Below are positions 6,950 through 59,349 of a stretch of 64,000 nt of DNA, piece after piece. The stretch comes from an uncultured virus (IMG/VR IMGVR_UViG_3300042863_002994) (lineage: Duplodnaviria > Heunggongvirae > Uroviricota > Caudoviricetes): the IMG/VR virus record IMGVR_UViG_3300042863_002994, one strand, 5' to 3'. The position numbers were made by a program, and so were the translations under genes. Within the stretch, counting starts at the first letter, position 1. Every line of letters starts with the position of its first letter. The notes beneath the pieces are model-generated. The model saw only the letters and a program-made list of their open reading frames with translations, did no database searches and was not told where the DNA came from.

Positions 6950-7867
6950 ATGTTAATATCTGAATATGTAGAAATAATTTTGACTAATAGAAATTTAAAA
7001 AATTTAGTTAAAAGATATGATTTATCAAAAAATTTAAAAGAGGGTGATATTGTAAAAATATCAATAGATAATCTATCCAAATCTTCTCATTATTATGTGG
7101 TCATAACATGTGATTACTGCAATAAGGAATTAAAAATTCCATTTAAGAGATATAACCTATCAACAAAAATAGTAAATAAATCTGCTTGTTCATCAGTAGA
7201 CTGTTCGAACCAAAAAATAAAAGATGTTTGTCAGGTTAAATATGGTGTTGATAATCCATTCCAATCGGAAAAAGTAAAGATTAAAACAATTGATACTCTT
7301 ATAGGAAAATATGGAGTAAGTCATCCCATGTTTTTAAAGGAGACCAAAGATAAAATAAAAGAAACTTGTTTTATTAAGTATGGAGTCGATAATTATACAA
7401 AAACAGAGGAGTGTAAAGAAAAAACAAAAAAAACTTGTTTAGATAAATACGGAGTTGATCATCAATCCAAGACAACTATGGGACAGGAGATTAGGAAAAT
7501 GACAAGAATTGAAAATGGTCTTCAAATACCAGACCACCTAGTCCCAGAGTATAGGAAATATAGACTCGAAGTTAATAGAATAACAAATAGGATTAAAAAT
7601 AGTATATTGGAAATCTGGGATGGCAATGATTACTATGACGATGAGTATATAAAAGATAACTTCAGTTTAAATCCAAATGACAGAAATTTTCCACATTTTG
7701 ATCATAAAATATCTGTCATTTACGGGTTCAAAAATAACATATCACCTGAATTAATAGGCGATATAGATAACATATGTATAACTAAACAATGGATTAACGG
7801 TATGAAAAGAGAAAAATGTGAAGAAGAGTTTAAGAAAGAATTCATAATCCATCAAATAAAAATATAA
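6950..7867 (+). CDS. Putative homing endonuclease: CxxC domain, KYGV repeats, HNH-like C-terminus
   Basis: CDYC, four KYGV repeats, DHKIS...NICITKQWIN. Confidence 0.65.
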   Translation: MLISEYVEIILTNRNLKNLVKRYDLSKNLKEGDIVKISIDNLSKSSHYYVVITCDYCNKELKIPFKRYNLSTKIVNKSACSSVDCSNQKIKDVCQVKYGVDNPFQSEKVKIKTIDTLIGKYGVSHPMFLKETKDKIKETCFIKYGVDNYTKTEECKEKTKKTCLDKYGVDHQSKTTMGQEIRKMTRIENGLQIPDHLVPEYRKYRLEVNRITNRIKNSILEIWDGNDYYDDEYIKDNFSLNPNDRNFPHFDHKISVIYGFKNNISPELIGDIDNICITKQWINGMKREKCEEEFKKEFIIHQIKI

Positions 7868-7895: not shown

Positions 7896-9345
7896 AGTGA
7901 GTGTTCTCAATGGTAATTTGTTTAGTCTTTCCGTTTGACCTGGTTATCGGACAAGGAACTCCAACTGAAATAATTAGTAGATTTTTCTTCAACCTTGAAG
8001 TGTCAAGACTATCAGTAAATCCGTCTGTAAGAAGTACGCTTGCATAATCATTATAGTTTTCAATGACATACTCGATTGCTGGAGTCATTGCAGTTCCACC
8101 AAGGCCGTGTATCTTCATAGTCTCAAGTTTTCGTTTACTCTTAAAATTTTCTACCCATTTAACTTCTGTATCAGATTGTATAAAATTGATCTCGATGTCG
8201 TTTTGATAAACATAACTCAATACTCTCTCAAACGTGCCAGAACCCGACATGCTACCCGATGTGTCAAGTATGACATTGATCTTAGTCTTTACTTTCCTGT
8301 TACCTTTAAGACCGGATATTCCTTTTCTATTTGGTTTAACAATAGTCTTTTGTTTCTTTGTTCCAAAGATAAGAGTTGATACGGATCTCTTAATTTCTTT
8401 AAGATAGTCTTTTCTTTTCTTTCTTAGTTTATTAAGAGTAGTTTCAATATCACCAGAAGTGAGTCCTCTTGATTCAAGACGATCCATGATATCTCTTACC
8501 ATAGCCTCACGCATTTCCTCTGGTACATCATCTCCCATGTGTTTATCAAGGTATTCTCCTCCATTCTTATCAATGTCATCAAAGATTTGTTCTTTAGACC
8601 AAGTATCAATTGGTTCGCCATTTTTTGAAGGATTTTTACCATAGGGACCATAAGATGGTTTTCCAGTTGAGTCTTTACCACCTTCATTTCCGGTTCCGTT
8701 GCAATCCTGACATGGTTTACCATTTCCACTACCACCACAAGATTGTCCATCACCTTCTCCATCGCCTTCGCCTCCATCTTTTCCCTTACTTTCGCCTTTA
8801 CCCTTTTCTTCTCCTGATCCATCACAAGATTTACATTGATTCTGAGATTTATTGGATTTATCCCATTTTTCTTTTTCTTCTTTGAGCCACTCATAGAGTT
8901 CTTCGAAAATAAGTTTACCTGTATATTCTTTAGGAATAAACAAAGCCATATTTTTACCTTCTTTGGTTTTTGGAATTTCAACGAAGGTATGTGAAATATC
9001 TTCCCAGATAAGATGGTTTATAATCATATCTTGTGCGATATTTGAAAGTCGGTGATCATATTGACCAGCCATTGTTCGCCTTGGGTGATTGAAAAGAAGG
9101 TGGAAATCTTCGTGAAGTGTTATGAAGTTAACTTCTTTTTGTGACATATTCTCAAGGAATGATGGTGAGTAAAAGAAGTTCATACCGCTTGAAGATACGT
9201 TTACTCCACAAGTTCCTACGCTTTCTTGTTCTTTGAAGTTTATGTGAAGATTGAATTCGCCATAATATGGCAGATTCACTTTTGTATCAATCAACATTTC
9301 TTGAATTGAACGTAGTAGTTTTTCGTGAATATTTTTTACAATCAT
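7894..9345 (-). CDS. Putative metallopeptidase (DUF2201-like) plus vWA domain protein
   Basis: LHEDFH..H, NIAQD.IIN; DTSGSMS MIDAS, GGT, LTDG; two CxxCxGxG repeats. Confidence 0.85.
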   Translation of the reverse strand: MIVKNIHEKLLRSIQEMLIDTKVNLPYYGEFNLHINFKEQESVGTCGVNVSSSGMNFFYSPSFLENMSQKEVNFITLHEDFHLLFNHPRRTMAGQYDHRLSNIAQDMIINHLIWEDISHTFVEIPKTKEGKNMALFIPKEYTGKLIFEELYEWLKEEKEKWDKSNKSQNQCKSCDGSGEEKGKGESKGKDGGEGDGEGDGQSCGGSGNGKPCQDCNGTGNEGGKDSTGKPSYGPYGKNPSKNGEPIDTWSKEQIFDDIDKNGGEYLDKHMGDDVPEEMREAMVRDIMDRLESRGLTSGDIETTLNKLRKKRKDYLKEIKRSVSTLIFGTKKQKTIVKPNRKGISGLKGNRKVKTKINVILDTSGSMSGSGTFERVLSYVYQNDIEINFIQSDTEVKWVENFKSKRKLETMKIHGLGGTAMTPAIEYVIENYNDYASVLLTDGFTDSLDTSRLKKNLLIISVGVPCPITRSNGKTKQITIENTH

Positions 9346-9366
9346 TGTTTGCTATTTAATTTTAAA

Positions 9367-9397
9367 CAAATATAGGATAAAAAGTTCTATTTACAAA
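9367..9397 (-). promoter_or_regulatory. Bacteroidota-type sigma promoter (TTTG-19 nt-TATATTTG), representative copy
   Basis: TAnnTTTG also at 1895, 4262, 12293, 14231, 16999, 22631 (-) and 17826, 30791, 32458, 36287, 53695 (+), each shortly upstream of a start codon. Confidence 0.75.
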
Positions 9398-9433
9398 ATT
9401 TTTTAAATAGGGAGAGTTTTAATATATATTATA

Positions 9434-10111
9434 ATGATTTTAGATAAAAAGGTTAAGGTTAAAATAACGAAGAAGAATATTGATCATTATAAAAATTTTT
9501 ATGAGAGCATATCATTAAAAGATGAAATTGAGATAGATACTGAAACTCAATTGCAGAAAGGAAGTAATTTAAAAATAAATGTTTCATGTGATTTGTGTAA
9601 TATACAAAGATATATAAAATATCAGTCTTATGTGAAGAATATTAATTGTTGTGAGAAGTATCAAATTTATACTTGTGATAAGTGTTCTCATATAAAATTG
9701 AAGGAATATAATTTAAATCATTATGGTGTAGAATACTATTCTCAACATCCTGATAGAAATGAAAAAGTTAGATTAACTTCTTTAGAGAGGTTTGGTGTTG
9801 ATCATTATAGTAAAACTGATGAGTATATAGAAAGAAGAGGTAAGACGAATATTGAAAAATTTGGTTTTATTAATCCTTTTATGGATAAAGATATGATTAA
9901 ATCATCTTTTTTTATTAAATATGGTTTTGAGAATCCCTCTCAAGTAGAAGAATTTAGTGAAAAGGCAAAAATTAGCACTAGAGAAAAGAACGAAGAACTC
10001 AAGTATTGGATTCCTCTTAGTCAAAAAACAGACTGGGAAATTTATAAAAATAAAGTTAGAAATCTGACCAGGTTGTCTATTAAAGATATAGAATGGGATG
10101 GTACAGATTTT
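9434..10111 (+). pseudogene. 5' part of KYG-repeat HNH-like endonuclease interrupted by foreign DNA
   Basis: Collinear with 6950..7867 up to WDGTD (WDGND in paralog), then an abrupt change to unrelated sequence. Confidence 0.8.
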
Positions 10112-10167
10112 GTCATAATTGCTGAAACAATAAAAATTGCTCCGAAAATTGTCATTAATTTTTTCAT
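10110..10167 (-). pseudogene. Truncated lipoprotein-like signal peptide (second cassette gene)
   Basis: MKKLMTIFGAIFIVSAIMT, cut at the junction where a lipobox Ser-Cys would be expected. Confidence 0.55.
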
Positions 10168-10342
10168 TCTGTTTTGCGTAGTCGCCACTTTTGTTTGATT
10201 ATGTTCCGTTTTTTAAAGTGGGTTCTGGTCTCCACATTTGTGAATTAAATTATTGTTTGGTCTTAACATATATGTCAATACGAGTCAAAAGTCGGTGGTT
10301 CTCTTGTCTTTGTCATTCCGTTGGTTGTCTTTTTAAACTTGC

Positions 10343-10475
10343 CCATAACGTTTTTGGGCTTGGCGAAGGTGGGGATTAAAAAGTACTAAAGTTCAAATTT
10401 AGCACAAAAGTTAATAGAAAGTACAAATGCTCAATTAAGCACAAAAGCCCCACTTTTGCCAAACCCTTGTTAGCT
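10343..10475 (-). other. attC-like recombination site
   Basis: AGCTAAC just after the HAD stop, then a 19-bp imperfect inverted repeat (GGGTTTGGCAAAAGTGGGG / CCCCACCTTCGCCAAGCCC), then GTTATGG. Confidence 0.8.
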
Positions 10476-10481
10476 GCCGTA

Positions 10482-11156
10482 TTATTTATTAATTCCAAGT
10501 TTGTTTTCTGCATTTTCAAAATTAAAGTTGACCCAGTTTTCAGTATGAACGTCAATACCTTCTTTCTTAAAATCGTCATAATTTTTCAATCCCACTCCAA
10601 TGAATTTTAAATTTAAGTTTTTTGCTGTTTTTAAATCCCAAATTCCATCTCCGATTGAAATAATATTTTCAAATTCGTCAACACAATAATATTTTTTCGC
10701 TTTTTCGATTGCGTCAGATACAATTTCTTCTCTCTTATAAAAATGGTTAGATGAAGCAATAAGTTTCTCGTCATACCAAATTTTTGCTTGTTCTAATTTA
10801 AGAATAGCTGGGTTCAATAACGAGCCTGTCGCAAAAGTCAAAGCGTATTTTTTTTCTTCTTTCAAAAAGTTCACAAATTTGTTAGCCCCATTAATTTCTT
10901 TAACATTTTCTAATGTTTGCATTATTTCAATCATTTTCTGTTCAAAGTCGTTTAACAAATTAAAATCAAACTTTACAGAAAAATTATTTTCGTAGTTTTC
11001 TTTTAAAATGTAACTGTCTGTATGATGCTTATATTCATTCCAGTTTTGATTAATTTTAGTAACTCCAATTTTTTGCATTGAATTTAAATATGCAGTTTTA
11101 TGTTGGTAATCACTTTTTGTCAAGGTTTCGTCAATGTCAAATACAATTAAATTCAT
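10482..11156 (-). CDS. HAD family hydrolase (cassette-borne)
   Basis: Motif I FDIDETL, motif II ATG, motif IV IGDGIWD. Confidence 0.9.
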   Translation of the reverse strand: MNLIVFDIDETLTKSDYQHKTAYLNSMQKIGVTKINQNWNEYKHHTDSYILKENYENNFSVKFDFNLLNDFEQKMIEIMQTLENVKEINGANKFVNFLKEEKKYALTFATGSLLNPAILKLEQAKIWYDEKLIASSNHFYKREEIVSDAIEKAKKYYCVDEFENIISIGDGIWDLKTAKNLNLKFIGVGLKNYDDFKKEGIDVHTENWVNFNFENAENKLGINK

Positions 11157-11179
11157 TTGTGAGTGTGTTTGGTAAATAT

Positions 11180-11257
11180 GGCAGCTAACTTGTTTATATG
11201 TCTGTAACGCCCATTAATTTTACAGACATAACCCATCTAATTTGGTGGGATATGTCT
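11180..11257 (-). other. attI-like site: core GTTAGCT plus three phased TATGTCT/AGACATA boxes
   Basis: AAACAAG^TTAGCTGCC at cassette start; boxes at 11197, 11224 (inverted) and 11251. Confidence 0.5.
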
Positions 11258-11323
11258 ATGTTTTTGATTTACAGGTTGGGAAATTACAGATATTATTCAA
11301 AAACGCCCAGCAGTTTTTGGATG

Positions 11324-11518
11324 TTCATCGGTAGTAACTTCACTTTATCTCATTATGATGATGAGTATCCTACGATAGATCATAAAATATCTATTTATGA
11401 AGGATTTTGTAAAGGAATGGAACCTGAGTTAATATCTTCTATTCAAAATATTTGTTGGACTAAGAGAACTATTAATATAAAAAAGAACAAGAAATCATTT
11501 TATTCAGAAAATATATAA
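11324..11518 (+). pseudogene. 3' part (HNH-like domain) of the interrupted endonuclease
   Basis: NFTL...YPTIDHKISIYEGF...PELIS.I.NICWTK..IN aligns with the C-terminus of 6950..7867. Confidence 0.8.
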
Positions 11519-11521
11519 TAA

Positions 11522-11932
11522 ATGAATCATCTATTATTTTTTAATAACTTCATATCGGAAAGTGTCGACTCTAAACCATTGAATGGAATGATGGCAAATC
11601 ATCTATTAAAGGATTCAGATGCTTTTCCATTTAATAAAAAAGAGATTGAATGGGTAAAGTCTAATATAAATACCAAGGATTTCGATTTGAATATTGATAA
11701 GGAAAATAGTTTTTTTATTTTTTCAAAATCAAAAACACATGGCACTCGTGTTTGGAAACTTAAAGACAAATGGGATAACTCTGATGTTTATTTTTTAAAA
11801 TTAAAAGCAAATTTCGATGAGCATCATCCTTCGGATCCATCTTCTGGTACTTGGTTTGGATCATCTTTTGGTAGAGAATGGGGTCGTAATTGGGAAAAAT
11901 TTAATACAGAAAACATATCAGAAATTTTTTAA
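11522..11932 (+). CDS. Hypothetical protein with MNHLLFFNNFISES leader
   Basis: 136-aa ORF, leader variant. Confidence 0.7.
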   Translation: MNHLLFFNNFISESVDSKPLNGMMANHLLKDSDAFPFNKKEIEWVKSNINTKDFDLNIDKENSFFIFSKSKTHGTRVWKLKDKWDNSDVYFLKLKANFDEHHPSDPSSGTWFGSSFGREWGRNWEKFNTENISEIF

Positions 11933-12270
11933 ACTTCTTTGAATGTAAATTTTGTCATTTCTTTATTGAATATGAAAGTTCCACAGAATCTGTATCTATC
12001 ACAATCTGATTGTACTTCATAATATGTTGTTCCATCATGTTCATATTCGAACAACCAAAAGTCATTATCTTCTATCATTTTATCAACTCTTACATCAACT
12101 CTACCTTTTACGCCAAATTCTTCCCACCAGTTCAGATCATCATTTAATTTCCAGTTGATATAATCTTGCAATTCTTTTAGTTGATTTAAATTTAGATTTA
12201 AGAAACCAACTTCTTTTCCATAACCTAGTTTTAAGAAACTTGGATCAAATTCTGTAAATTGTTTTGTCAT
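11929..12270 (-). CDS. Hypothetical protein
   Basis: 113 aa, TATATTTG upstream. Confidence 0.7.
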   Translation of the reverse strand: MTKQFTEFDPSFLKLGYGKEVGFLNLNLNQLKELQDYINWKLNDDLNWWEEFGVKGRVDVRVDKMIEDNDFWLFEYEHDGTTYYEVQSDCDRYRFCGTFIFNKEMTKFTFKEV

Positions 12271-12414
12271 TTTAAAATTATTTAGTTTTATACAAATATA
12301 GGATAAAAAGTGGAAAAACGGTTGAAGGATAAATTCATCGAAAAGTAAAAACTCTATATGATTTTATCTATTTGTTGATTCCGCCATTCTTCTAGTTCTA
12401 TAAAAAATAAGTTT

Positions 12415-12618
12415 TCATTGTTGGGATTCCAAAAAACGTTTAGATTCCTTATAGTTCTCTATCGGAATATCTGCATAAATAGGTACAATAAGAAATTCGT
12501 TTAAATCATTTCTCGTGCCTAATAGTTCATCATAAGAATAATATCCCTCATAGATTTTACCATAAGTAAAATTACGATACGTAAGTTCTTTTGTGACACA
12601 AACCCATTTATTCATCAA
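12415..12618 (-). CDS. Small hypothetical protein, probably frameshifted before a C-terminal tag
   Basis: Alternate frame continues FWNPNNENLFFIELEEWRNQQIDKII*. Confidence 0.55.
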   Translation of the reverse strand: MMNKWVCVTKELTYRNFTYGKIYEGYYSYDELLGTRNDLNEFLIVPIYADIPIENYKESKRFLESQQ

Positions 12619-15453: not shown

Positions 15454-15797
15454 TTTAAAATATTTTCTATTTTATTATCTCTTACAACTTTTTTAATCCA
15501 ATTTATATCTTTAAAATTAATTCCAATTACTATATCATTTAAAACATAATTATTTATCTCAATTCTTTCTTTCTGAGTTATAATATCGATATTTCTTTTT
15601 TTAAAATGATATTTATTTGATATCTTATCATAAAGCCTTTCTTTGATGTATTTCAATTTCCATATCTCATTTTCTTTTTTATAGAATGTTTTGATCTTCA
15701 ATGTATCATAGAAGATAAATTCATATGTACTTTTAAATACTATATCAATTTCTCTCTCAATAGATATTGTATTATCTGAAACTCTTTCTATTTTCAT
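15450..15797 (-). CDS. Hypothetical protein with C-terminal VRDNKIENIL
   Basis: ORF plus motif. Confidence 0.7.
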   Translation of the reverse strand: MKIERVSDNTISIEREIDIVFKSTYEFIFYDTLKIKTFYKKENEIWKLKYIKERLYDKISNKYHFKKRNIDIITQKERIEINNYVLNDIVIGINFKDINWIKKVVRDNKIENILK

Positions 15798-16371
15798 CTA
15801 TTTTGTTTATAAAAAATCCACATAGACCTATGAAAGCACCACCAAGGTGTGCAATGTGACCGACACCATCTTGTACACCGAATATAATACTAAATATTTC
15901 AATAATAACAAAAAAGGCAATTAATTTTTTTGCTTTAAATGAAAAGAAAGGAAGAAAGATTATAGATAATTCTGCATTAGGATATCTTAGAGCATAATAT
16001 ACCATCAGAGCAAATATGGCTGCTGATGCACCAACAAGAGGAACATTAAAAAAAAGAAGTTGGATGAAAGCTCCAAATACTCCCGATATGAAATATAACC
16101 ATAGAAATTTTTTTTCACCAAGATCATTTTCACATAAAGGGCCAAATGAAAGTAATCCAATCATATTAAAAATAAGATGCGTAAATCCACTATGGATGAA
16201 CATGTAACTTATGAATCTATAAACAGAAAACTCATTTGAATTTATAGGATAAGCCGCAAATAAGAACATTAAATTTGGAATAGCCAAAGTAAATATGAAT
16301 GCAATAATATTTATATAAAATATCTTGCTTACTAAGTTTGTTTTTTCGAACATATAAAATAATTTATACAA
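15772..16371 (-). CDS. Rhomboid family intramembrane serine protease
   Basis: H...HLIFNM, GASAA, HIAHLGG, multiple TM segments; real start may be MFEKTN. Confidence 0.9.
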   Translation of the reverse strand: MYKLFYMFEKTNLVSKIFYINIIAFIFTLAIPNLMFLFAAYPINSNEFSVYRFISYMFIHSGFTHLIFNMIGLLSFGPLCENDLGEKKFLWLYFISGVFGAFIQLLFFNVPLVGASAAIFALMVYYALRYPNAELSIIFLPFFSFKAKKLIAFFVIIEIFSIIFGVQDGVGHIAHLGGAFIGLCGFFINKIDENRKSFR

Positions 16372-26909: not shown

Positions 26910-27326
26910 TTATGAAAACTCCACTACTTCAATTTCAAAAACCATATTTTTTCCCGATAGTGGATGGTTAGCATCTATCACAACGGTTTCTTCATTTATC
27001 GAAACAACTGTAACATTGAATGGTTGTCCATCTTGTCCGACTCCTTGAAGTTGAGCACCTTCTTCAACATCCAAAGGTACTTGATTTCTAGGAACGGTCA
27101 TTATAAGTTCTTCTCTTACTGGACCATAACCTTGTTCTGGGTTTATAATAACTTCTGTTTTATCACCAACTTGTAGTCCGATTACAGCATTTTCAAATCC
27201 TGGTATTACTTGACCAGATCCAACTTCAAATTCAATTGGTTGGCGACCAACAGATGAGTCAAATATTTGATTATCTTCTAATTTTCCTGTATAGTGTACT
27301 TTAACGGTATTTCCTTTTTGTATCAT
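26910..27326 (-). CDS. slyD: FKBP-type peptidyl-prolyl isomerase (SlyD/SlpA-like)
   Basis: VHYTG..FDSS, GQVIPGFE, DANHPLSGK. Confidence 0.9.
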   Translation of the reverse strand: MIQKGNTVKVHYTGKLEDNQIFDSSVGRQPIEFEVGSGQVIPGFENAVIGLQVGDKTEVIINPEQGYGPVREELIMTVPRNQVPLDVEEGAQLQGVGQDGQPFNVTVVSINEETVVIDANHPLSGKNMVFEIEVVEFS

Positions 27327-34918: not shown

Positions 34919-35377
34919 ATGACAATTTACACATTAGATTTCGAGGAGTGTTTGAAAAATTTCAAAGAATACCATATTTCTTTGAAAAAGGTGAATGAGG
35001 AAAAAGAAAAATTCACAAAAGAAGTTGAGAATATCAAAAAAGAAATGGAAAGCATCATAAATCAATCAAGATCATTCCTATTGGATGATGCAACAAAAAA
35101 ATCATCAGCAATGAAATTCCAAGAACTTCAAGAAAAAGCAATAAGACTTGAATCTGATTTCAGATCAACCATTGTTGATATGCAAAATTCAGAAGTTGAG
35201 AAAAATTTCAATTCGCTCAATGAAATAATTAATAAATGGGCAGATCAATTAGATATTGATATTATTCTTAATAAAACTCAAGTAATTTTTTCAAAAATAT
35301 CATTTGATGTGACTTCTGAATTTATTCAGATTATGAAAGATCGTGAGATATATGAAGAATTCAGTGAGAAATACTAA
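34919..35377 (+). CDS. OmpH/Skp-like coiled-coil protein without signal peptide
   Basis: I..LD.E.CL, long helices, DIILNK..V.F...DVT.E pattern. Confidence 0.6.
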   Translation: MTIYTLDFEECLKNFKEYHISLKKVNEEKEKFTKEVENIKKEMESIINQSRSFLLDDATKKSSAMKFQELQEKAIRLESDFRSTIVDMQNSEVEKNFNSLNEIINKWADQLDIDIILNKTQVIFSKISFDVTSEFIQIMKDREIYEEFSEKY

Positions 35378-36249
35378 TGAAAAAATTATCTTCTCAAGTT
35401 GGCCAAACGCCCTTAATTAAAATCACAGAAAGAATCTTCGCAAAGTTTGAAGGTCAAAATCCAAGTGGTTCAATAAAAGATAGAATGGCGTCCTACATAA
35501 TAAATAACGCTGAAGAAAATAATCTTATTAAAAAAGGTGATACTATCATAGAAGCAACATCCGGTAACTCAGGAATTGCCTTTGCTTTCTTAGCAGCAGA
35601 AAGAGGTTATAAATGTATTATCATTATGCCGGCTAATATGAGTGAAGAAAGAAAACAAGTGTTGAGACTTTATGGTGCAGAACTTATTGAAGTACCAGAT
35701 GGTAAATTTGATGATGCAATTGCTTTAAGAGATAAAATGGCCGAAGAGAATGGTTACTTTAATCCTAATCAATTTCATAATCCACTAAATATACAAGCTC
35801 ATTATGAGGGAACTGGTGTTGAGATTCTACACCAACATACAGAGAAAATTGCATCATTTGTAGATGGAACAGGAACTGGAGGTACTCTTATGGGCATCTC
35901 TCGTCTTTTAAAGATGTATCATCCGTGGATGAAAGTGGTTGCTGTTGAGCCATCAGAATCTCCAGTTATGTCAGGTGGTCAACCAGGAATTCACGGAATT
36001 CAAGGAATTGGAGATGGTTCTAAATTCTTAGTTAATCTAAAAGAAGTTGATGATATTATAATTATATCAACAGAAGAAGCTAAAGAAAGAGCTAGGAGAC
36101 TTGCTAAAGAACAAGGTTTATTTGTAGGTATTAGTTCAGGGGCTAATATTTTAGCATCAGAAATATTGTTAGAAAAATACCCAGATATGGAAGGAAACAT
36201 CATTACTATATTGTGCGATAGAGGAGAAAGATATCTTTCTTGTTTATAA
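35377..36249 (+). CDS. cysK: Cysteine synthase (PLP-dependent)
   Basis: GQTPL, NPSGSIKDR, EATSGNSG, GTGGT, IQGIG, D.GERYLS. Confidence 0.95.
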   Translation: MKKLSSQVGQTPLIKITERIFAKFEGQNPSGSIKDRMASYIINNAEENNLIKKGDTIIEATSGNSGIAFAFLAAERGYKCIIIMPANMSEERKQVLRLYGAELIEVPDGKFDDAIALRDKMAEENGYFNPNQFHNPLNIQAHYEGTGVEILHQHTEKIASFVDGTGTGGTLMGISRLLKMYHPWMKVVAVEPSESPVMSGGQPGIHGIQGIGDGSKFLVNLKEVDDIIIISTEEAKERARRLAKEQGLFVGISSGANILASEILLEKYPDMEGNIITILCDRGERYLSCL

Positions 36250-40150: not shown

Positions 40151-40744
40151 ATGTTACCATTACAAATTGCACTAACTGGGAATGAAGGAAGTGGACTTCA
40201 TGATGTAGGAAGTTATTTTAAAAAAAATGGTGTTGAAGTATTTAATGCTGATATTCAATTAAAATGGATTTTAAACTATGATGAATATATAATAAGCTTA
40301 GTTAAAAGAAAGTTTGGAGAAGGATCTGTTACAAGTGGATTCCTTAATCCACTTTATTTCAATAATGATTCTAGGTTTGATGATCTTATAGATATTGTAG
40401 AGTTTAAACTTTTTGATCAACTAAGTAAATTTCGATTTAAAAGCAGAGATAAATGTTATATTATATTTTTATCATCTTTGTTACATGAGAGAAACTGGAT
40501 AAATAGATTTGATATGACGGTGATGGTCACAAGATCTACTGATGAGAGGATTGAATCTTTTTATAAGAATTCTGAGTATTCAATTTCTCAAGCAAAAATG
40601 ATATTTTCAAACGAAATGAGTCAATCAGATAAAAGTATAAATTCCGAATTCGTTCTTGATAATCTCTCAAAATCTATGATAGATAGTCAAGTAAAAAACA
40701 TAGATTCGCAAATTGTAAATTATTATTTAAAAACAAGAAATTAA
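40151..40744 (+). CDS. coaE: Dephospho-CoA kinase-like protein
   Basis: IALTG..GSG, NAD, LLHE, R..; P-loop Lys appears degenerate. Confidence 0.65.
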   Translation: MLPLQIALTGNEGSGLHDVGSYFKKNGVEVFNADIQLKWILNYDEYIISLVKRKFGEGSVTSGFLNPLYFNNDSRFDDLIDIVEFKLFDQLSKFRFKSRDKCYIIFLSSLLHERNWINRFDMTVMVTRSTDERIESFYKNSEYSISQAKMIFSNEMSQSDKSINSEFVLDNLSKSMIDSQVKNIDSQIVNYYLKTRN

Positions 40745-41230
40745 ATGTCAACACATAAAGTGAAAATAAAAGTAATTCATGTTGATAATTGGAAGCACCT
40801 TCAATTTGTTAAAGTTATAAAAGAACATACCGGATTAGGATTAAAAGATGCCAAAGATTTATCGGATGATATTAAAATTATTTATGATAGATCTTATAAT
40901 AAATGGGTCGAACTTGATATAATTACTGATGCCTATTCTTTAAAAAAAGATATATCTTATCAAGGATTTCGAGTTGAAATAATTGATCAAACAGAAGAAA
41001 GGAATTTAAAACTTATGTCAATAGGACTTGGTGATAAATCCGATTTAATAGAATCAATATCCAAGGAACTATCAATCGAATTGTATAGTAAAGTAAAAAA
41101 TGAGTTATCAAATGATTTGGATAGTATATTTAAATCTTATTTTGAAAAACTATTGATTGATTTCAGTGATGAGAAACTAATAGAAATTTTAAATAAAAGA
41201 ATGAGTGGCAAATGCTTGCATACACTCTAA
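40745..41230 (+). CDS. Protein with ribosomal L7/L12 C-terminal-like domain
   Basis: VKVIKEHTGLGLKDAKDL. Confidence 0.7.
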   Translation: MSTHKVKIKVIHVDNWKHLQFVKVIKEHTGLGLKDAKDLSDDIKIIYDRSYNKWVELDIITDAYSLKKDISYQGFRVEIIDQTEERNLKLMSIGLGDKSDLIESISKELSIELYSKVKNELSNDLDSIFKSYFEKLLIDFSDEKLIEILNKRMSGKCLHTL

Positions 41231-41440: not shown

Positions 41441-42529
41441 TTATGCCGTTAAAAATATCTTTCTACTCTGTCTATCAATCGCGAGTATCTTTACATTTAC
41501 TTCTTGTCCGGGACTAAACTTTTTATTTATTTTTTCTAATTCAGAGGTGTGTATAAGACCCATTGTATCTTCATCTAGTGATATTAGTGTTCCAAAGTTT
41601 TTAGTATCTCTGGCGGTTCCTATGAGTACTTCACCGACTTTAATGTTGTCCCAAAGAGATTCACGCATTATCTGAGTGAGTATTATTTTCTTTTTTATAA
41701 TTTCTTTTACATAGAATTCAATCCTTGTTCCTGGTTTGATATCATTGATTACATCTCTGTATGATTCCACTATGTTTGCCTTGTGTATCATTCCGGTGAG
41801 ACATTCATTGAATTCAACGAATACTCCAAATGGTGTGGTTCCTGTAACATGTCCTTCATAAAGGTTTCCTTCTATGATTTCATCCATAGCAGAGGGAATC
41901 AAAGTGTGTAGATACTTTCTTCTACTTATTATATAAGTTCCTTCTTGTTCAGAGTAATTATCAACCATAGCAGTTAATTTTTGACCAACAATTGATTCTG
42001 GGTCGTGTAGTTTATTTATACCTGCTAATGTATTTGGCATGAATCCAGAAAGTGTAATTCCATTATAGAAAACATCAACATCATATCCTGCTGGGTTCAT
42101 ACTTCTTACATATATACTAACAACAGAATCATCTATATTTATTAATTCATCATGTGCTTTTGTTTCATATAGTTGTGAAATAGATCCTCTAACAAAAAAA
42201 GATAATTTATCAATTGAGGAGATAATAACATCTATCGTTTCTCCAACATTTGTATTTTTTAAATATTTGTTTTCTAATGGTCTATTTTCAACATAGATAT
42301 CATCTTTTAGACCAGGATAATTGAAGATGTGAAATCCACTTGTTAATCCTTGATACTTTGCGTTAAGAACTTTACCTTCTACCATAGGTTCGATATTCAT
42401 CGAACTTATTAGTTTAAGAAGTTTTTGGTCTTCAGGATTGTTTGATACTTTTCTGTTTTTGTTTTTTATTTTGGACTCTTCGATTTCAAGTTCATTCCAA
42501 AAATTTTCATCATTTAAATTTTCATTCAT
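41441..42529 (-). CDS. Ribosomal protein S1-like multi-S1-domain protein
   Basis: GFMP..L, G.V.GTTPFGVFVEF..GMIH, NFG.LI.L..GLIH.SEL, G.EV.VKIL.ID. Confidence 0.85.
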   Translation of the reverse strand: MNENLNDENFWNELEIEESKIKNKNRKVSNNPEDQKLLKLISSMNIEPMVEGKVLNAKYQGLTSGFHIFNYPGLKDDIYVENRPLENKYLKNTNVGETIDVIISSIDKLSFFVRGSISQLYETKAHDELINIDDSVVSIYVRSMNPAGYDVDVFYNGITLSGFMPNTLAGINKLHDPESIVGQKLTAMVDNYSEQEGTYIISRRKYLHTLIPSAMDEIIEGNLYEGHVTGTTPFGVFVEFNECLTGMIHKANIVESYRDVINDIKPGTRIEFYVKEIIKKKIILTQIMRESLWDNIKVGEVLIGTARDTKNFGTLISLDEDTMGLIHTSELEKINKKFSPGQEVNVKILAIDRQSRKIFLTA

Positions 42530-58212: not shown

Positions 58213-59349
58213 TCATGATATATTATATAATAATATAGAATTTAAATCTCTATAATCCTTATCAATTATAAACATAAAGTTATAACCATTTTTTATAGAA
58301 TATTCCTTTTTTGATAGATTTTTATCTAACTCATAGTTATATGTATAACTAGATTTTACCTCAATAATTAAATTGTATTCAGGTAAGTAAAAATCAGGAT
58401 GGTAATAATGACTTTTATCATTTAAAAAATATTGTATGGATTCAATTTTTTCGATCTTTAATTTATCATAATATTTTTCTAAAAAGTCAAGCTCATAGGT
58501 TCCTTGGTAATACAAATCGGTGTTATTATATTTTTTGGATTTTAGTCCTGATTTTTGTTGTTTATCGTGTATTATTTGACATTGATTATGTGATGTATAT
58601 CCATATTTATCTATACAACTATTAATTGTTTTTTCTCTCCATTCATCTGTTTGTGTATAATGATCAACACCATACTTTAGATTACAGGTAGTCTTTCTAT
58701 TTTCCAAAATTTTATCGAGTTCTTCTTTTGTCCTATTTTTCCAAATTTCACTAATTCTTTCTTTCCACTCATTTGTTTGCGAATTATTAATAAACCCAAA
58801 ATTTTCTAATTTTGTTTTAACTCTTTTCTCTTTAACTATTTCACAATATGAAGGATTCTCAACTCCATATCTTTCTAAACATGTTTCTATTGATTTTATT
58901 TTATACTCATCTGTTTTTGTATAGCAATCAACACCATATTTTTCTAAACAAGTTTCTTTTCGATTGTTAAGTATTAAAATTTTTTCATCTTCTGTTTTAT
59001 TTTCCCACTTTTCTTTAACCATCTTTTTATTAGATTCTAATTGAGAATTACAAACAACACCGTATTTTTCTAAATTTGTTCTTCTAACTTTTACATTGTT
59101 ACATTTTTTACAACAATAGATATCTGTTTCATTTTTTGTAAATTTTAAATAACTTCGGTATTCCATTCTACAAATAGAAAAACAAGAATCACATTCAACA
59201 TCTACCAAAACATGACTACCATCTGATAGATCTTTTGCAAAAATCTCATTAAATCCTATCTTTAAATCATAATAAGATTTTAATTTCTTTCTAAAGTGAA
59301 ATATATTTCTATTTGAAACCTCTATTAAAACTTTTTTAGTTATTATCAT
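58213..59349 (-). CDS. Putative homing endonuclease: KYGV repeats plus PD-(D/E)XK domain
   Basis: CDSC/CKKC, 5-6 [KR]YG repeats, YHPDFYLPEYNLIIEVKS. Confidence 0.7.
   Translation of the reverse strand: MIITKKVLIEVSNRNIFHFRKKLKSYYDLKIGFNEIFAKDLSDGSHVLVDVECDSCFSICRMEYRSYLKFTKNETDIYCCKKCNNVKVRRTNLEKYGVVCNSQLESNKKMVKEKWENKTEDEKILILNNRKETCLEKYGVDCYTKTDEYKIKSIETCLERYGVENPSYCEIVKEKRVKTKLENFGFINNSQTNEWKERISEIWKNRTKEELDKILENRKTTCNLKYGVDHYTQTDEWREKTINSCIDKYGYTSHNQCQIIHDKQQKSGLKSKKYNNTDLYYQGTYELDFLEKYYDKLKIEKIESIQYFLNDKSHYYHPDFYLPEYNLIIEVKSSYTYNYELDKNLSKKEYSIKNGYNFMFIIDKDYRDLNSILLYNIS

Follow-up and report, generated by a model that had tools for sequence, protein, structure and literature searches.

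A probable fragment of a Bacteroidota integron-like gene-capture platform lodged in a homing-endonuclease gene of a huge phage

An uncultured lake-water virus of the class Caudoviricetes (IMG/VR record IMGVR_UViG_3300042863_002994) carries a homing-endonuclease gene that is split by about 1.2 kb of foreign DNA, positions 10112-11325 of the 64,000-nt stretch analyzed here (the window), and this DNA runs antisense to the gene that it divides. The locus raises the questions of what was captured, how it came to lie there, and whether it could still be acted upon. A first-pass annotation, made from the sequence alone, had described it as the start of a Bacteroidota-style integron cassette array that a jumbo phage had picked up, without an integrase, from a host. 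Our analysis indicates that the insert is very probably the platform-end fragment of a Bacteroidota integron-like gene-capture system, made up of the last codons of an integrase gene, an attI site, one complete gene cassette with its attC site, and the truncated beginning of a second cassette (Table 1).

The interrupted gene belongs to Pfam family DUF7487 (PF24308; 3.9e-18, 66.6 bits against a cut-off of 27) and matches two homing-endonuclease groups of PHROGs (phrog_12131 and phrog_3339; 3.2e-11). A paralog at 6950..7867 aligns with both halves in the same frame, residues 42 to 228 with 9551-10111 and residues 233 to 289 with 11324-11494, leaving about four residues unaccounted for between them. 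These paralog-defined split points match the outer limits of 10110 and 11326 proposed in the first-pass annotation, and the in-frame endonuclease halves on both sides place the fragment inside a phage gene, as it had claimed. The reading frame that opens at 9434 continues past the junction into the insert and stops at 10198, whereas the C-terminal 64 residues, whose only match is the window's own paralog, are now reachable solely through an open reading frame (ORF) on the plus strand (11198..11518) that starts inside attI. Because both halves of the gene are still open, the sequence suggests that the insertion is fairly recent. In the related phage LR756502, the syntenic position is occupied by an uninterrupted DUF7487 gene of 559 residues whose C-terminal domain is different, and an IMG/VR search that used the N-terminal part as the query gave no uninterrupted ortholog; the junction bases are consequently uncertain by about 3 nt on the left (10111 ± 3) and 2 nt on the right. 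The flanks of the window show 70 to 75% BLASTN identity to uncultured phages of 635 to 642 kb, and its gene content is that of a huge phage, which agrees with the jumbo-phage setting first assigned to it.

A direct repeat (10087-10111 and 11270-11294, 72%) was considered as a target duplication and rejected: its second copy belongs to the outer stem of attI, and the likeness is taken to be due to chance. The ATG of the ORF at 11198-11518 lies inside attI and leads in frame into the C-terminal endonuclease part, and a 106-residue protein could still arise from it. Three DUF7487 homing-endonuclease paralogs occur within the 64 kb (6950-7867 and 9434-11518 on the plus strand, 58216-59349 on the minus strand), the last of them with a different C-terminal nuclease region.

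An insert with such sharp ends could also be produced by an assembler that had misjoined bacterial reads into a phage contig. The attC region is indeed a high-copy repeat in lake samples, with a depth of 57 to 811 over 10311-10411 compared with about 3 to 6 across the remaining insert (HAD gene and attI), and foreign contigs in the lake runs break at 10346/10347 and 10472, the two attC core sites; repeats of this kind can mislead assemblers. However, 23 lake or freshwater runs from 23 studies contain 60% or more of the words sampled from 9700-11700, and contigs of four lake runs, none of them flagged as a possible source of the window, were placed on the locus. The junction at 10111 is bridged without any difference in two of these four runs (X10, 9896-10359; X5, 9705-10235) and that at 11325 in all four (X5, 10381-11632; X16, 10700-11376; X23, 11212-11362; X10, 11165-11356), the evidence being assembled contigs rather than raw reads, from which evenness of depth is not judgeable. 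The junctions lie 240 and 850 nt away from the repeat, and the in-frame split of one gene would require two precise joins. A chimera is so improbable that we regard it as practically negligible, and both junctions of the insert are taken as real.

The core of the insert is an 840-nt cassette whose cargo is an intact gene for a phosphatase of the HAD superfamily. The protein matches PF13419 (HAD_2; 38.1 bits, cut-off 23.8) and PF00702 (Hydrolase; 39.7 bits, cut-off 26.4), and at all 73 positions that are conserved in at least 95% of 121 sequences it keeps the majority residue, including those of the DxDxT, TGS, and GDGxWD motifs. Among its 275 homologs (best identity 93%), the named ones are from Bacteroidota, except for one labelled Paracoccus. 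Read on the minus strand, the cassette starts as G^TTAGCTGCC at 11189 (the caret marks the crossover), and the R'' sequence behind the stop codon is complementary to this start at 10 of 10 nt, extending to 15 nt with one mismatch. The exact 10-nt complementarity had been recognized in the first-pass annotation, and all of the elements that it listed (the start at 11189, the HAD ORF, the sequence at 10478-10469, the stem arms, GTTATGG, and the ATG of a following frame) were found in place.

The same cassette occurs in an array of Albibacterium sp. RHL897 (locus L002), where it starts with G^TTAGCTGAC and ends with GTCAGCTAAC, a stem, and GAAACG^TT, and it occurs with different neighbours in a metagenome contig (L003). 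Counted from G to TT, it measures 843 nt in all three copies; the flanks are unrelated, and the similarity among the copies starts and stops exactly at G^TT. When the whole insert was compared with the Albibacterium genome by BLASTN, only query 138-980 (window 11189-10347) was aligned, at 77% identity, precisely from one G^TT to the other, an agreement that greatly exceeds chance. The cassette start and R'' differ in concert between the two copies (TTAGCTGCC/GGCAGCTAA in the window, TTAGCTGAC/GTCAGCTAA in Albibacterium), a compensatory change that preserves their complementarity; two more stem pairs differ on both sides in the alignment, and the rule of start/R'' complementarity also holds for four further cassettes of Albibacterium. 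Because the 840-nt unit recurs in three unrelated contexts with G^TT boundaries, it is, judged by these comparisons, a discrete mobile gene cassette, which bears out the earlier view of it as an integrated integron-type cassette of 840 nt.

A further copy of the HAD cassette was seen at 350-2199 of another locus (L004), where the homology ends right after R'' (GTCAGCTAAC); there, an element with genes for an IS91-family Y2 transposase and for a tyrosine recombinase on the other strand has inserted into attC. The Albibacterium array (L002, 4256-10860) also contains an ORF-less mini-cassette of about 140 to 175 nt in five to six copies that alternate with gene cassettes. Its sequence opens with TTGAGCGG and closes with GGCTACG^TT, and it comprises a GC-rich stem and an R'' of its own (CCGCTCAAC). 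The cargo of this array includes ArsR/MerT and a GmrSD restriction enzyme.

In attC sites of integrons, the consensus cores are RYYYAAC (R'') and GTTRRRY (R'), and the cassette boundary lies at G^TT. The attC of the HAD cassette has two arms of 19 nt (L'', 10466-10448; L', 10374-10356) that are complementary at 16 positions, a loop of about 73 nt, and the spacer AAAAAC. On the minus strand the stem has three mismatches (T.G, A.C, and A.C), which become A.C, G.T, and G.T on the plus strand, and the predicted fold is stronger on the plus strand (-20.0 kcal/mol, z -2.1) than on the minus strand (-15.5 kcal/mol, z -0.3). The conversion of two mismatches into G.T wobbles had been put forward as a sign of bottom-strand folding, an argument that holds and extends to the family. 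We aligned 20 family members, taken as the bottom strand, and derived the structure from them; as they had been found by likeness to the window copy, the weight of the stem lies with shuffled and slid controls and not with raw percentages. The family stem has 19 pairs, 12 of which are changed on both sides, with 95.8% of the cells paired; none of 500 shuffles was as good, and slid controls reached 44 to 59%. On the bottom strand there are 316 Watson-Crick pairs, 48 G.T pairs, and 16 mismatches, compared with 316, 5, and 59 on the top strand. At one position of the stem all 20 sequences have a G.T pair, and at another 15 have G.T and 5 have G-C. This asymmetry favours a fold formed, as in attC sites, by the strand opposite the genes, and it is on that strand, according to the alignment, that the family stem pairs best.

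The family is widespread in Bacteroidota: 72 of 401 sampled genomes matched the insert, with the attC (query 838-1031) accounting for 85 of the 104 places listed. A covariance model of the family (R1) scored the window attC at 165 bits on the plus strand and 26.6 bits on the minus strand, the window copy being part of its training set, and with filters off it found this single site in the 64 kb (all other matches had E values of at least 0.2). In five Bacteroidota genomes, R1 found 11, 2, 27, 24, and 22 sites, arranged in same-strand clusters in four of them, the fifth having only 2. The Rfam models that had been suggested for the hairpin were of no help, as a scan of 9000-12500 with 4227 families at E values up to 10 gave no Flavo-1, repeat, or attC-like family and, as the lone match, a sub-threshold DUF805 motif.

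A hairpin placed right after a stop codon, with a loop whose sequence is unusually conserved among genomes, might be a mere terminator or a repetitive extragenic palindrome-like repeat that is flanked by complementary sequences through coincidence. We consider this extremely unlikely, given that the cassette is mobile with exact G^TT ends in three contexts, that a compensatory change maintains the complementarity between its start and R'', that it is the strand antisense to the genes which has the conserved G.T pairs, and that same-strand arrays of these sites adjoin a recombinase gene with an attI site.

Classical attC sites have variable loops, whereas that of the window family, about 70 nt long (10375-10447), is conserved in sequence across distant genomes; it contains two direct repeats of 15 to 20 nt. 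The -7 type promoter motif of Bacteroidota is TAnnTTTG, and a promoter of this type in the loop was considered and dropped: the window and a few members have the motif, whereas most of the 20 aligned sites lack it.

The 135 nt upstream of the HAD cassette identify the end of the array from which the fragment came. The crossover sequence there is ...ATATAAACAAG^TT at 11189, and the region before it contains three AGACATA/TATGTCT arms and a central CCCA..TGGG hairpin (fold z -3.3) that resembles the hairpin of other attI sites. Further upstream are codons that can be read as the 3' end of a Xer-like integrase gene (family C-termini read ..NIQQIKSPFDDL and ..NIQKIKSPFDDL before the stop), and at 107 nt after the stop of this remnant the sequence reads AGACATATAAACAAG^TTAGCTGCC. 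The arrangement has a counterpart in a bacterial genome (G124) that encodes a 303-residue recombinase, 41% identical to the Albibacterium one and co-oriented with its array, which ends with ..NIQQIKSPFDDL and a stop codon; 96 nt after that stop codon begins, the sequence is GCGCATATAAACAAG^TTGGCAGC, and the R'' of the first cassette is GCTGCCAAC. The core of the window attI is identical to this verified attI/first-cassette junction. In addition, 30 integrase loci were compared, the best of those in 138 of the 401 genomes with a homolog at an E value of 1e-45 or below. A core of ATA[AT][AGT]NNAG^TT[AG] was found 70 to 116 nt after the integrase stop in 26 of the 30, and in 15 of these 26 an exact 9-mer complement of the cassette start follows 332 to 1228 nt downstream, for which the chance expectation is about 0.005 per locus. 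Position and core in combination support the reading of the 135 nt as an integrase remnant followed by attI, and this agrees with the earlier proposal that the fragment is the start of a cassette array.

The recombinase gene adjoins the arrays in four of the five genomes, and its product is about 280 to 303 residues long. The Albibacterium recombinase reached 184.7 bits on TIGR02249 (cut-off 265) in two segments between which about 75 profile positions are passed over, and IntI4 (2a3v) aligned likewise (query 203-277 to chain 244-318). Its best matches were the XerA model NF040815 (201 bits) and PDB entry 5hxy (3.6e-34), and with no Xer or IntI model did its score reach the curated cut-off. 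XerA, XerC, and XerD are similar to it in length and domain layout, but the array recombinase sits beside cassette arrays with an attI site, not at a dif-type site. The Bacteroidota system shares much with sedentary chromosomal integrons, some of which also have an integrase co-oriented with the cassettes: promoterless single-gene cassettes bounded at G^TT, cassette starts complementary to their own R'', imperfect hairpin sites that pair best on the bottom strand, same-strand arrays adjoining a tyrosine recombinase gene with a proximal attI, and the presence of one cassette in different arrays. Unlike in chromosomal integrons, the Bacteroidota recombinase has no IntI-specific extra domain, and the attC sites have conserved mismatches, no bulged extrahelical bases, and R cores off the consensus. 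The IntI-specific domain is thought to be essential for integron integrases.

Several observations weigh against the assignment of the insert to an integron-type platform. The linked recombinase is without the IntI-specific domain. The attC cores deviate from the consensus (R' GTTATGG, R'' AGCTAAC), and instead of bulged extrahelical bases the consensus stem has one conserved C.A mismatch and two conserved G.T pairs. About 5 of the 10 residues of the integrase remnant are identical to family C-termini, a peptide match that is weak alone over only 10 codons. Genome and metagenome scans gave three HAD loci, none of which has the neighbours seen in the window (integrase and attI before the HAD gene, the cassette with the DUF805-like leader after it). 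Neither an excised circle, an empty site, nor another cassette at attI was present in the contigs of the four lake runs, whose assemblies drop rare variants, and the joints listed in these runs derived from attC variants of other organisms. Finally, no tyrosine recombinase or integrase was found among the 69 window ORFs of at least 100 residues, in line with the earlier statement that the fragment is accompanied by none; this covers the visible 64 kb only, and one could be encoded elsewhere in the phage genome.

The deviation of the attC cores, which had been noted at the outset as slight, is confined to degenerate positions, AAC and GTT being invariant in 20 of 20 family members. Because the associated recombinase is without the IntI-specific domain, the system is, as far as its sequences tell, integron-like and not a classical integron; the initial label of a Bacteroidota-style integron holds for the sequence features of cassette, attC, and attI, but an IntI-type recombinase is not part of the picture. 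A single complete integron has been reported in Bacteroidetes in the accessible part of PMC9024848, and the portion of a preprint that could be consulted (bioRxiv 10.1101/2024.07.02.601686) lists Bacteroidota among the clades previously without integrons. In the literature that could be searched, nothing relevant was found on attC-like sites or integron-like arrays in Bacteroidota.

How the fragment entered the phage can be judged from its ends. The insert breaks off within an integrase codon on one side and in codon 19-20 of the ORF of the second cassette on the other, and neither break is at G^TT. Since both cut coding sequence instead of crossover points, the capture would not have occurred by cassette insertion through the integrase, and it was probably achieved by non-site-specific (illegitimate or microhomology-driven) recombination. 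Integron integrases can use secondary sites, and related phages hold attC clusters without an integrase, which leaves room for the idea that an integrase placed the insert by attC/attI recombination with a secondary site in the phage gene. Besides the position of the ends, an excised circle could not hold the integrase 3' end together with a truncated cassette, and with the gene halves in frame and only about four residues unaccounted for there is no room for later trimming; placement by an integrase is thus very unlikely. Under illegitimate capture, a random 1.2-kb stretch of the platform would have been taken up and tolerated because its target is a selfish, dispensable gene. In the donor system, by analogy with integron integrases, the recombinase would exchange the folded attC bottom strand with attI at G^TT.

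Either a bacterium or another phage may have been the donor. Composition is non-discriminating (30.6% GC in the insert, 27.9% in the window; GC at third codon positions of the HAD gene 0.25 in both the phage and Albibacterium). A platform carried by another phage or an ancestor, and not by a bacterial chromosome, is a minority possibility, although one with some substance. A 21-nt L'-R' motif occurs in more than 126 IMG/VR viral contigs, and R1 found 220 sites in 78 loci among the matches listed (up to 8 sites per 6 kb), two of these viral arrays lying beside integrase homologs of 37 to 38% identity. The related huge phages of about 640 kb also carry attC clusters of the same family (3 to 4 sites in LR756502, 2 to 3 sites in LR745206). 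On the other hand, among the HAD cassette copies whose context is available the closest belong to bacteria or are unassigned, IMG/VR gave no close relative when searched with HAD as the query, the insert has no match among INPHARED records, bacterial loci have an identical attI core, and some of the IMG/VR contigs are possibly misassigned bacterial DNA. Of the initial claim that the fragment came from a host cassette array, the array origin stands, and the source may have been a bacterial host or a phage.

No integrase homolog was found at E values up to 1e-5 in three related complete huge-phage genomes, including LR756502 and LR745206. The clusters of these two phages are at 1795-2961 of locus L186 (LR756502) and 2004-2965 of locus L187 (LR745206), and that of LR756502 is about 20 kb from the syntenic locus. 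In both, it is the bottom strand that carries the short ORFs separating the sites, the inverse of the arrangement in bacterial arrays.

Integron fragments, attC sites, and clusters of attC sites lacking integrases (CALINs) in phage genomes have already been published, with illegitimate recombination proposed as their route of entry (Qi, Rajabal, Ghaly, Tetu, and Gillings 2023, PMC9892861, in the part available). As in the cases described there, the present phage holds integron pieces without the integrase, and the chromosomal-integron fragments of Vibrio phages are the closest parallel in that portion of the paper. The present fragment differs from those accounts in having an attI site and a single attC, which places it below the two-attC definition of a CALIN, in deriving from a Xer-type Bacteroidota system, in interrupting a homing-endonuclease gene of a huge phage, and in retaining an integrase remnant that marks the platform end. 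Like morons and auxiliary metabolic genes, it is a foreign block with an intact metabolic-type gene in a dispensable spot, and its ends are unrelated to a site-specific system. Unlike them, it carries two apparently intact recombination sites and could stay recombinationally active.

In the phage, intact attI and attC sites flank the HAD gene in direct orientation. With this arrangement, a cognate integrase supplied by the infected cell could release the cassette as an 840-nt circle or add new cassettes at attI. The HAD gene is co-oriented with most of the neighbouring phage genes and may be expressed along with those on the minus strand. That attI, cassette, and attC form a live docking site, at which a Xer-like host integrase would excise and load cassettes that huge phages then shuttle between hosts, is rather doubtful; if true, huge phages without an integrase would be shuttling cassettes of an integron-like system not described in the literature that could be searched. 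The presence of one identifiable cassette with base-exact ends in a bacterial array, an environmental array, and a huge phage is direct evidence that the Bacteroidota system moves genes across replicons. The phage copy, with attI, cassette, and attC but no enzyme, is a simple natural substrate for asking whether a Xer-like recombinase performs attI x attC recombination. The fragment is small, and phage-borne integron pieces as such are not new; it suggests that this uncultured huge phage has its host among Bacteroidota and illustrates one route by which huge phages gain accessory genes.

Table 1. Parts of the insert and of the interrupted phage gene, in window coordinates
Feature	Position	Strand	Description or basis
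DUF7487 homing endonuclease, N-terminal part	9434..10111	+	226 codons; Pfam, PHROGs, paralog alignment
Cassette 2, truncated 5' part	10112..10348	-	First 237 nt; starts TTATGGGC after the crossover
attC of cassette 1	10343..10478	-	R'' GGCAGCTAAC, 10478-10469; R' G^TTATGG, 10349-10343; folding (bottom) strand is window +
Gene cassette 1, complete	10349..11188	-	840 nt; begins with the TT that follows the attI crossover, ends with the G of the R' core in attC
HAD-superfamily phosphatase gene, intact	10482..11156	-	224 aa; cargo of cassette 1; Pfam
attI site (supported)	11189..11292	-	Structured region of about 100 nt; ends AGACATATAAACAAG^ at crossover G 11189
Xer-like array integrase, 3' remnant (supported)	11293..11325	-	Last 10 codons, NIQKLLGVFE; stop TAA 11295-11293
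Homing endonuclease, C-terminal part	11324..11518	+	Paralog residues 233-289, 47% identity, E 7e-10

Homology to the Albibacterium HAD cassette ends at 10347, and from there the second cassette begins with a leader of about 180 nt, followed by an ATG at 10167 that opens MKKLMTIFGAIFIVSAIMT (MKKLMT...). This ORF is signal-peptide-like and is cut at the phage junction after 19 codons. The leader contains a hairpin resembling the DUF805 RNA (10240-10170, minus strand) that scored 35.1 bits (E 6.8e-4) with Rfam model RF03081, below the gathering score of 51.1; its first hairpin fits the model, and the second has non-pairing positions. Such a hairpin may be a recurrent cassette-borne leader. Matches of 30 to 45 nt to 10170-10240, with 87 to 100% identity, occur at six places in five Bacteroidota genomes, and lake contigs join an attC end to a DUF805-like hairpin across different spacers.

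Elsewhere in the window, many cell-like genes are found, at 15775-16371, 26913-27326, 34919-36246, 40151-41227, and 41444-42529. The cell-like functions of the window comprise a rhomboid protein, an FKBP, an OmpH-like protein, a PALP enzyme, CoaE, an L7/L12-like fragment, and an S1-domain protein, and the window also encodes NusG and both subunits of a type II topoisomerase.

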